NCBI RefSeq assembly: GCF_024502345.1
Contig: NZ_JALDNN010000001.1
Direction: 5' to 3' (one strand)
Source of the DNA: Escherichia coli
Lineage (GTDB): Bacteria; Pseudomonadota; Gammaproteobacteria; Enterobacterales; Enterobacteriaceae
DNA: 64,000 nucleotides
Below, piece after piece: positions 863 through 3,800 of this stretch; within the stretch, counting starts at the first letter, position 1; each line of letters opens with the position of its first letter. The position numbers are program-made.

Positions 863-3800
863 TAACAGTAAGGCCTTCTCCAGGAGAAGGCCTTGAACTC
901 TGAATCGCTATTAACCCGCAACAGCAATGCGTTTCATATCTGTCATATAGCCGCGCAGTTTCTTACCTACCTGCTCAATCGCATGGCTGCGAATCGCTTC
1001 GTTCACATCACGCAGTTGCGCGTTATCTACCGCGCCTTCCGGAATAGCTTTACCCAGGTCGCCCGGTTGCAGCTCTGCCATAAACGGTTTCAGCAACGGC
1101 ACACAAGCGTAAGAGAACAGATAGTTACCGTACTCAGCGGTATCAGAGATAACCACGTTCATTTCGTACAGACGCTTACGGGCGATGGTGTTGGCAATCA
1201 GCGGCAGTTCGTGCAGTGATTCATAGTAAGCAGATTCTTCGATGATGCCGGAATCAACCATGGTTTCAAACGCCAGCTCAACGCCCGCTTTCACCATCGC
1301 GATCATCAGTACGCCTTTATCGAAGTACTCCTGCTCGCCGATTTTGCCTTCATACTGCGGCGCGGTTTCAAACGCGGTTTTGCCGGTTTCTTCACGCCAG
1401 GTCAGCAGTTTCTTATCATCGTTGGCCCAGTCCGCCATCATGCCGGAGGAGAATTCGCCGGAGATGATATCGTCCATATGTTTCTGGAACAGCGGTGCCA
1501 TGATCTCTTTCAGCTGTTCAGACAGCGCGTAAGCACGCAGTTTCGCCGGGTTAGAGAGACGGTCCATCATCAGGGTGATGCCGCCCTGTTTCAGCGCTTC
1601 GGTGATGGTTTCCCAGCCGAACTGAATCAGTTTTTCTGCGTATGCCGGATCGGTGCCTTCTTCCACCAGCTTGTCGAAGCACAGCAGAGAGCCGGCCTGC
1701 AACATACCGCACAGAATGGTTTGCTCGCCCATCAGGTCAGATTTCACTTCCGCAACGAAGGACGATTCCAGCACGCCCGCACGGTGACCACCGGTTGCTG
1801 CCGCCCATGCTTTAGCAATCGCCATGCCTTCGCCTTTCGGATCGTTTTCCGGGTGAACGGCAATCAGCGTCGGTACGCCGAATCCACGTTTGTACTCTTC
1901 ACGTACTTCGGTGCCTGGGCATTTCGGCGCAACCATGACTACGGTGATATCTTTACGGATCTGCTCGCCCACTTCGACGATGTTGAAACCGTGCGAGTAA
2001 CCCAGCGCCGCGCCGTCTTTCATCAGTGGCTGTACGGTGCGCACTACATCAGAGTGCTGCTTGTCCGGCGTCAGGTTAACCACCAGATCCGCCTGCGGGA
2101 TCAGTTCTTCGTAAGTACCCACTTTAAAACCGTTTTCGGTCGCTTTACGCCAGGATGCGCGCTTTTCGGCAATCGCTTCTTTACGCAGAGCGTAAGAAAT
2201 ATCCAGACCAGAATCACGCATGTTCAGACCCTGGTTCAGACCCTGTGCGCCACAGCCGACGATGACTACTTTTTTACCCTGAAGGTAGCTCGCGCCATCG
2301 GCGAATTCATCGCGCCCCATAAAGCGACATTTGCCCAGCTGTGCCAGCTGCTGGCGCAGATTCAGTGTATTGAAGTAGTTAGCCATGGTGATTCCTCGTG
2401 ATGTTGTGCTTCTTATTGTTCGGTTCGCGTTTGCGAGATTGAATTCACTATATGACAGGAAATTTATTGCGGAAATTGATATATTCACAACGTCACATTG
2501 CAATTTCTGCAACGTCAACATTGAGGGCTGCGCCATTGGATTTACGCGATCTGAAAACCTTCCTGCATCTGGCGGAAAGCCGCCATTTTGGCCGCAGCGC
2601 GCGGGCGATGCACGTTAGCCCGTCCACGCTCTCTCGGCAGATTCAGCGCCTGGAAGAAGATCTTGGTCAGCCGCTATTTGTGCGCGATAACCGCACGGTA
2701 ACGCTGACCGAAGCGGGCGAAGAGTTACGCGTTTTCGCCCAGCAAACATTGTTGCAGTATCAGCAACTGCGCCACACCATCGATCAGCAAGGGCCGTCGC
2801 TCTCTGGCGAGTTACATATTTTCTGCTCGGTGACCGCCGCTTACAGCCATCTACCGCCGATTCTCGACCGCTTCCGCGCGGAACACCCGTCGGTGGAGAT
2901 TAAACTTACTACTGGTGATGCGGCAGATGCGATGGAAAAGGTGGTCACTGGTGAAGCGGATCTGGCGATTGCGGGTAAACCGGAAACCTTGCCCGGCGCA
3001 GTGGCGTTTTCGATGCTGGAGAATCTGGCAGTAGTGCTGATTGCCCCCGCGCTGCCCTGCCCGGTGCGTAATCAGGTGTCGGCAGAGAAGCCGGACTGGT
3101 CTACAGTGCCGTTTATCATGGCCGATCAGGGACCGGTGCGTCGCCGCATTGAACTGTGGTTTCGACGCAATAAAATCAGCAACCCGATGATTTACGCCAC
3201 GGTTGGCGGGCATGAAGCGATGGTATCGATGGTGGCGCTCGGCTGTGGTGTGGCGCTGTTGCCGGAAGTGGTGCTGGAAAACAGCCCGGAACCGGTGCGT
3301 AACCGCGTGATGATTTTAGAGCGCAGCGATGAGAAAACGCCGTTTGAACTGGGCGTTTGTGCGCAGAAAAAGCGGCTACATGAGCCGCTGATTGAAGCAT
3401 TCTGGAAGATTTTGCCGAACAACAAATGACGTTGTCGCGCGGGTAAGCCTGATAAGCGAAGCGCTATCAGGCATTTTTCCCTAACCCGCCAAAAAGAACC
3501 TGAACGCCGGGTTATTGGTTTCGTCGTGGCAATCGTAGCCCAGCTCATTTAGCCGGGTTTCGAAATCCGGTTCATGGTCGCCGAGTTCGAACGCTGCCAG
3601 CACGCGCCCATAGTCGGTACCGTGGCTGCGATAGTGGAACAAAGAAATATTCCAGTGCGTACCCAGCGTGTTGAGGAAGCGCAGCAGCGCGCCCGGTGAT
3701 TCCGGGAATTCGAAGCTGTAGAGGCGTTCCTGCAACGGATGTGACGGACGCCCGCCGACCATATAGCGCACATGCAACTTCGCCATTTCGTCGTCGGAGA

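Follow-up and report, generated by a model that had tools for sequence, protein, structure and literature searches.

Probable TTG initiation of ilvY in Escherichia coli and a two-allele polymorphism at its start codon

The locus considered here lies within 64,000 nucleotides of Escherichia coli DNA (contig NZ_JALDNN010000001.1 of assembly GCF_024502345.1), referred to below as the window, whose ORF list gives the gene order ppiC, ilvC (minus strand), ilvY (plus strand), and ilvA (minus strand). The ilvC gene, which encodes ketol-acid reductoisomerase, occupies positions 911–2386 on the minus strand according to the ORF list and to the RefSeq annotation of O145 RM9872 and K-12, its ATG being the reverse complement of 2384–2386. 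It is divergent from ilvY (2536–3429, plus strand), which encodes the 297-aa LysR-type regulator IlvY, and a control region of 149 bp (2387–2535) separates the two start codons. The probable initiation codon of ilvY, assigned from the sequence, RefSeq starts, orthologs, and a family model, is the TTG at 2536–2538 (plus strand; local sequence gcgccaTTGgatttacgc), which is followed by GAT TTA CGC GAT CTG AAA ACC TTC, i.e., DLRDLKTF. A sequence-only reading of this DNA had recognized ilvY opposite ilvC across a 149-bp control region and had aligned the conserved LysR start MDLRDLKTF with this codon; both the gene identity and the coordinates were borne out. The ilvY of K-12, studied by Wek and Hatfield in 1986 and 1988, is reportedly the prototype of such a regulator acting on ilvC, the two promoters being divergent and overlapping.

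The reading frame of ilvY is open upstream as far as an ATG at 2452–2454, yielding an ORF of 325 aa as opposed to 297 aa from the TTG. Against this ORF, the IlvY equivalog model NF008722 of NCBIfam scores 510.9 bits (cutoff 246; E = 7.9e-154; model positions 1–292 of 293), while PF00126 (HTH_1) covers residues 31–90 and PF03466 (LysR_substrate) residues 117–321, corresponding to residues 3–62 and 89–293, respectively, of the TTG-started protein. An equivalog score above the cutoff, the presence of both the helix-turn-helix and the substrate-binding domain, and a divergent ilvC accompanied by the operators O1 and O2 together identify the product as IlvY. A mechanically called ORF of 77 aa (2385–2618, plus strand) starts at an ATG that overlaps the opposite-strand start codon of ilvC and crosses the control region in a frame other than that of ilvY, with no sign of being a gene.

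Promoters of the ilvC-ilvY region are non-consensus and depend on an activator or on supercoiling. Because of this, and because a scan of 2300–2650 for consensus sigma-70 promoters and terminators made no call, the ilvC -10 hexamer included, promoter positions were taken from the literature. The sequences of O1 and O2 are those quoted from Wek and Hatfield 1988 in PMC5002191, which also centres O1 at +17 relative to the transcription start of ilvY and IR1 at -65 relative to that of ilvC. The IlvY operator O2 is found at 2464–2484 (TTATTGCGGAAATTGATATAT) as the exact reverse complement of the O2 quoted there, and it is almost invariant in Escherichia, Salmonella, and Citrobacter, the single change being a G-to-A substitution in Escherichia sp. 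MOD1-EC7003. O1, the site of ilvY self-repression, lies at 2495–2515 (ACATTGCAATTTCTGCAACGT) with its core TTGCA-N5-TGCAA at 2498–2512 and its centre at 2505; it agrees with the sequence quoted in that source except at the central spacer base 2507, and the core motif is exact in most of the 89 Enterobacteriaceae species compared below and off by a base or two in the remainder. Taking the O1 centre as +17 puts the ilvY transcription start at about 2489 (plus strand), a second-hand, K-12-mapped position that may be a few nucleotides off, and the 5' untranslated region of ilvY would thus be about 47 nt long. Likewise, the IR1 centre (2505) at -65 puts the ilvC transcription start near 2440, with TATAGT at 2447–2452 (minus strand) as the putative ilvC -10 hexamer. 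In K-12, as described in PMC5002191, IlvY represses its own promoter via O1 and activates ilvC in a manner dependent on acetolactate or acetohydroxybutyrate.

Among genome-wide transcription start data, the ROSE supplement holds no ilvY entry and the supplement of Adams et al. gives an RNA 3' end only. In K-12 Term-seq data (PMC7815308), a dominant RNA 3' end is located 11 nt into the ilvY ORF (coordinate 3957809, minus strand; about 2547 in the window), with a Rho score of 0.47 and an intrinsic-terminator score of 1.87; it resembles neither type of terminator and implies a short 5' mRNA fragment of about 59 nt. Ends at the same distance of 11 are listed for uidR and fecI in the same tables (PMC7815308, Supplementary files 1 and 3). 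A link between the small RNA GcvB and ilvY was also considered, but the published work concerns ilvC and other ilv genes and not the start of ilvY.

Several lines of evidence converge on TTG 2536–2538 as the translation start. A Shine-Dalgarno sequence, GAGGG, is present at 2523–2527 (plus strand), separated from the TTG by 8 nt, and its predicted duplex with the 3' end of 16S rRNA (-6.1 kcal/mol) ranks within the top 9% of window positions, the ribosome-binding site of ilvC itself reaching -5.9 kcal/mol. Position 1 of NF008722 aligns with residue 29 of the 325-aa ORF, that is, with the TTG codon, and the HTH_1 model begins at residue 31. In each of the eight E. coli chromosomes examined, RefSeq calls the ilvY coding sequence from the homologous codon, which reads TTG in five (O145 RM9872, O26 FWSEC0001, PA45B, FDAARGOS_403, and UM146) and GTG in three (N3, EC20, and K-12); O145 RM9872, the closest genome, shares its start-region sequence with the window. 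We further compared ilvY loci from 89 Enterobacteriaceae species, recovered with a degenerate DNA pattern that encodes 13 residues. The codon directly before D2 is a start codon in every one of them (GTG in 53, ATG in 35, and TTG in 1, E. albertii), which argues that the alignment at the TTG is not a matter of chance, and a purine-rich ribosome-binding site occurs at the equivalent place upstream, preceded in nearly all of the species by an operator recognizable as TTGCA-N5-TGCAA.

The main competitor is the upstream ATG at 2452–2454 (plus strand), initiation at which would lengthen IlvY at its N-terminus by 28 residues, to 325 aa. As the sequence-only reading had stated, it is the sole upstream in-frame ATG and lies within the control region, 84 nt or 28 codons before the TTG. 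It represents the strongest type of start codon, the frame from it to the stop is uninterrupted in the window, and it is kept in several relatives. It is nevertheless judged non-initiating. Since the operator positions quoted in PMC5002191 put the ilvY transcription start near 2489, the ATG would fall outside the ilvY mRNA, in promoter DNA about 37 nt upstream of that start (about -37, in the ilvY -35 region), where it also overlaps the putative ilvC -10 hexamer (reverse complement of 2447–2452). The earlier reading had proposed weighing the ribosome-binding sites before the two codons, and the outcome favours 2536: in place of the -6.1 kcal/mol of GAGGG, the duplex before the ATG amounts to only -3.0 kcal/mol, no better than 41% of window positions, so that no Shine-Dalgarno sequence is recognizable there. 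Nor is the extended frame conserved, since 67 of the 89 species carry an in-frame stop at most 84 nt upstream of the conserved start (at -21 in 44 of these), two close relatives lack an ATG at the position of 2452 and read CACATTACAACAGG, and neither the IlvY nor the HTH_1 model aligns with any of the 28 additional residues. Not one of the eight inspected chromosomes has the ATG as its RefSeq start, and we found no evidence for its use. Of the points raised against the ATG, the coordinate of the transcription start is the least secure, and the others are independent of it. Overall, initiation at the ATG is regarded as extremely improbable.

Two other nearby codons deserve equal scepticism. An in-frame TTG at 2521–2523, to which the sequence-only reading had not referred, is present in the window haplotype and would add five residues, and codon 25 of ilvY is an ATG. 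The former shares sequence with the ribosome-binding site, is not preceded by a purine-rich tract, and corresponds to TCG in K-12 and O26-type strains; a start at the latter would truncate the helix-turn-helix domain, whose N-terminal end is at residue 3. Translation from either of them seems just as implausible as from the ATG at 2452. By contrast with these candidates, the TTG at 2536 combines a start position homologous to that of its orthologs, a Shine-Dalgarno sequence within 5–10 nt, and no better in-frame start upstream on the mRNA, the last point resting partly on the second-hand, K-12-mapped transcription start. Given the ribosome-binding site, the family-model boundary, the RefSeq annotation, the ortholog conservation, and the position of the upstream ATG outside the mRNA, TTG 2536–2538 is very probably the real translation start of ilvY, and we infer from comparative sequence evidence that the strain analysed uses it as such.

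Comparison with K-12 places this codon in a broader context. K-12 ilvY (b3773, NP_418221.1; NC_000913.3 3956927–3957820, minus strand) resembles the window in its ppiC-ilvC-ilvY-ilvA synteny, its length of 297 aa, and the positions of its ribosome-binding site and start; O2 is identical, and so is O1 save for the central spacer base. The spacer between ribosome-binding site and start differs, being CTGTCCCT in K-12 and CTGCGCCA in the window, as does the start codon itself, which is GTG in K-12 (...GAGGGCTGTCCCTGTGGATTTACGC) and TTG in the window. The sequence-only reading had left it undecided whether the codon was a TTG start or an ATG-to-TTG change relative to the reference, and had proposed comparing base 2536 with the K-12 start as the check. 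The equivalent base is G in K-12, neither A nor T, so K-12 does not share the TTG. Initiation at TTG is favoured by the ribosome-binding site, model boundary, RefSeq calls, and orthologs, whereas the idea of a change from ATG fails against the GTG of K-12 MG1655 and the absence of ATG, by 30-mer matching, from 5,426 complete E. coli genomes.

Within the intergenic region, the window and K-12 differ at five positions (2507, 2522, 2531, 2532, and 2535), all of them within the last 29 bp, and 2387–2506, comprising the ilvC leader, both promoters, O2, and half of O1, is identical. At the start codon, base 2536 is G in K-12 and T in the window, and the preceding base 2535 is T in K-12 and A in the window. 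The differences near the start take the form of two adjacent-base pairs, CG in the window versus TC in K-12 at 2531–2532 and AT versus TG at 2535–2536. The promoter and operator DNA upstream (2387–2506, 120 bp) is free of differences, although the flanking genes diverge by approximately 3%.

Across ilvC-ilvY as a whole, the DNA of the window is 96.65% identical to that of K-12. The ilvY genes differ by 34 synonymous and 2 non-synonymous codons (A183V and N296H), and the ilvC genes by 40 synonymous and 2 non-synonymous codons. Because synonymous differences so strongly outnumber non-synonymous ones in ilvY, the gene, as judged from its sequence, is intact and under purifying selection, and a decaying gene is ruled out. 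Downstream, a REP-like palindrome of about 52 bp (3430–3480; GCCTGATAAGCGAAGCGCTATCAGGC) is inserted between the convergent stops of ilvY and ilvA in the window and in K-12 as well. O145 RM9872 is without it: its ilvY is 891 nt long, ends in ...PNH*, and has a stop that overlaps the ilvA stop in TTAA. The 891-nt form also occurs in PA45B, UM146, N3, and EC20.

The distribution of start codons within the species was determined in 5,426 complete E. coli genomes by BLAST with 30-mers, chosen so that any 28-nt seed word has to span the diagnostic base; these replaced counts from identity bands of 42-mers and 60-mers, which were ambiguous through end-trimming. The TTG allele, preceded by A (A-TTG), was matched in 3,364 genomes (about 62%) and the GTG allele, preceded by T (T-GTG), in 1,854 (about 34%), K-12 among them. 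By the same 30-mer matching, none of the 5,426 genomes has an ATG allele, and the mixed forms A-GTG and T-TTG are likewise absent (0 each); 208 genomes were matched by neither 30-mer, presumably owing to a SNP in the 27 downstream bases. Among the genomes matched, the base before the ilvY start therefore co-varies with the start codon without exception. Judging by these genome sequences, E. coli has a natural polymorphism of two alleles at this codon, with TTG in the majority and the GTG of K-12 in the minority.

Both alleles occur on more than one background. TTG is combined with GAGGG and T at 2522 in the window and O145, with C at 2522 in O26, and with AAGGG in the B2 strains PA45B and UM146, whereas GTG follows CTGTCCCT in K-12 and CTGCGCCT in N3 and EC20; O157:H7 strains equal K-12 over a 60-mer covering the spacer and the start codon. 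The alleles are spread across phylogroups, GTG being present in K-12 and O157:H7 and TTG in O145, O26, and the B2 strains PA45B and UM146. For six E. coli haplotypes, folding of the RNA over the 5' untranslated region and 33 nt more gave -9.7 to -13.1 kcal/mol, with a predicted start-codon accessibility of 0.25–0.33 for TTG alleles versus 0.10–0.16 for GTG alleles. Compensatory mRNA structure between haplotypes was considered and set aside, as the differences in folding are too small and model-dependent.

Outside Escherichia, the start codon of ilvY in the species compared is GTG or ATG, and E. albertii is the only one of the 89 species with TTG. E. albertii differs from the window at 3 of 230 aligned columns spanning the control region and 5' coding sequence, with an overall identity of 92.6% over ilvC-ilvY. 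As GTG is common to Salmonella, Citrobacter, Klebsiella, Raoultella, and Kluyvera, as well as to three further Escherichia-like lineages, TTG would most likely be a derived state specific to Escherichia.

Some database records at this locus carry unexpected labels. Seven matches in the E. coli collection fall on records labelled as plasmids. One of them, NZ_CP081793.1 (E. coli CT01 'plasmid unnamed2', 57.9 kb), contains an ilvC-ilvY pair whose ilvY starts with GTG and whose sequence upstream of that start is strongly unlike E. coli, the 42 bases from O1 to the start being identical to those of Kluyvera genomosp. 3; a sister record, NZ_CP081708.1, matches the window at 87.5%. Mis-binning of a contig or capture of a chromosomal segment may explain NZ_CP081793.1. 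Three contig records (L023, L024, and L094 in the genome_contigs collection) seem to be mislabelled; the ilvY control region of a MAG named 'uncultured Pseudocitrobacter' is of the E. coli type, differing at 2 of 230 columns, a contig of 'Escherichia coli' SCPM-O-B-8794 shows just 92% identity over ilvC-ilvY, and a contig of 'Chryseobacterium sp. 18061' carries an enterobacterial ilvY.

At initiation, TTG is read as methionine by the initiator tRNA, although less efficiently than ATG, and of the three start codons in common use it is generally the weakest. Transcription from the ilvY promoter would give an mRNA beginning near 2489, with the +1 position deduced from the K-12 operator distances quoted in PMC5002191. 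The 30S subunit would bind GAGGG at 2523–2527, and initiator fMet-tRNA would read the TTG 8 nt downstream as methionine, producing the 297-aa IlvY (MDLRDLKTF...). The weak start would then be expected to keep down the translation of IlvY, a self-repressing LysR-type regulator of low abundance, an effect on protein level that we infer from the codon. Compared with ATG, GTG or TTG lowers expression 8- to 12-fold, and non-ATG starts are enriched and conserved in regulators of Enterobacteriaceae such as lacI, cra, and mlc (PMC11445065). The marR gene has a conserved GTG that is replaced by TTG in some genera, and swaps of its start codon alter expression and fitness measurably, with a change from GTG to TTG raising target expression 3- to 4-fold at a fitness cost (PMC12012556). 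In having a non-ATG start that switches between lineages, ilvY resembles lacI (GTG), cra and mlc (GTG), and marR (GTG or TTG) (PMC11445065, PMC12012556); it differs from them in that its variation consists of two alleles within a species with a strictly linked -1 base.

The marR precedent (PMC12012556), the weakness of TTG among the common start codons, and the confinement of TTG to Escherichia among the 89 species might also suggest a start-weakening or start-loss mutation of a gene that formerly began with ATG or GTG, or else a sequencing error, with little or no IlvY being made. TTG recurs, however, in E. albertii and in 3,364 complete E. coli genomes that were sequenced independently of one another, which speaks against both an error and a recent lesion; the ORF is intact, with its 34 synonymous versus 2 non-synonymous differences from K-12, and a ribosome-binding site is kept before the TTG. 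This explanation is accordingly given very little credence, and the TTG is not regarded as a defect. A weak start on a self-repressing regulator is an expected and known arrangement. With TTG being the commonest natural form of the gene, the assignment is correct but ordinary; thousands of genomes already have the TTG start of ilvY in their annotation, and features of this kind are well known. Only the strictly linked, ATG-free, two-allele start-codon polymorphism is mildly new, no description of such a polymorphism with a linked -1 base in ilvY having been found in the literature searched.

For annotation, the coding sequence of ilvY should begin at 2536 rather than at the upstream ATG, as it already does in RefSeq, and beyond this the TTG start matters little. 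With respect to biology, the absence of intermediates and of ATG in 5,426 genomes, the sharing of TTG with E. albertii, and the spread of the alleles across phylogroups allow a speculative and rather unlikely proposal, namely that A-TTG and T-GTG at 2535–2536 form a long-lived, selectively maintained polymorphism that sets two levels of IlvY translation and two set-points of ilvC induction. If so, the spacer changes at 2531–2532 and the GAGGG/AAGGG variants would represent compensatory tuning. Self-repression may well buffer the difference between the alleles, in which case the polymorphism would be neutral. The ilvY alleles offer, beside lacI and marR, a natural test case for how start-codon strength may tune a self-repressing LysR regulator.
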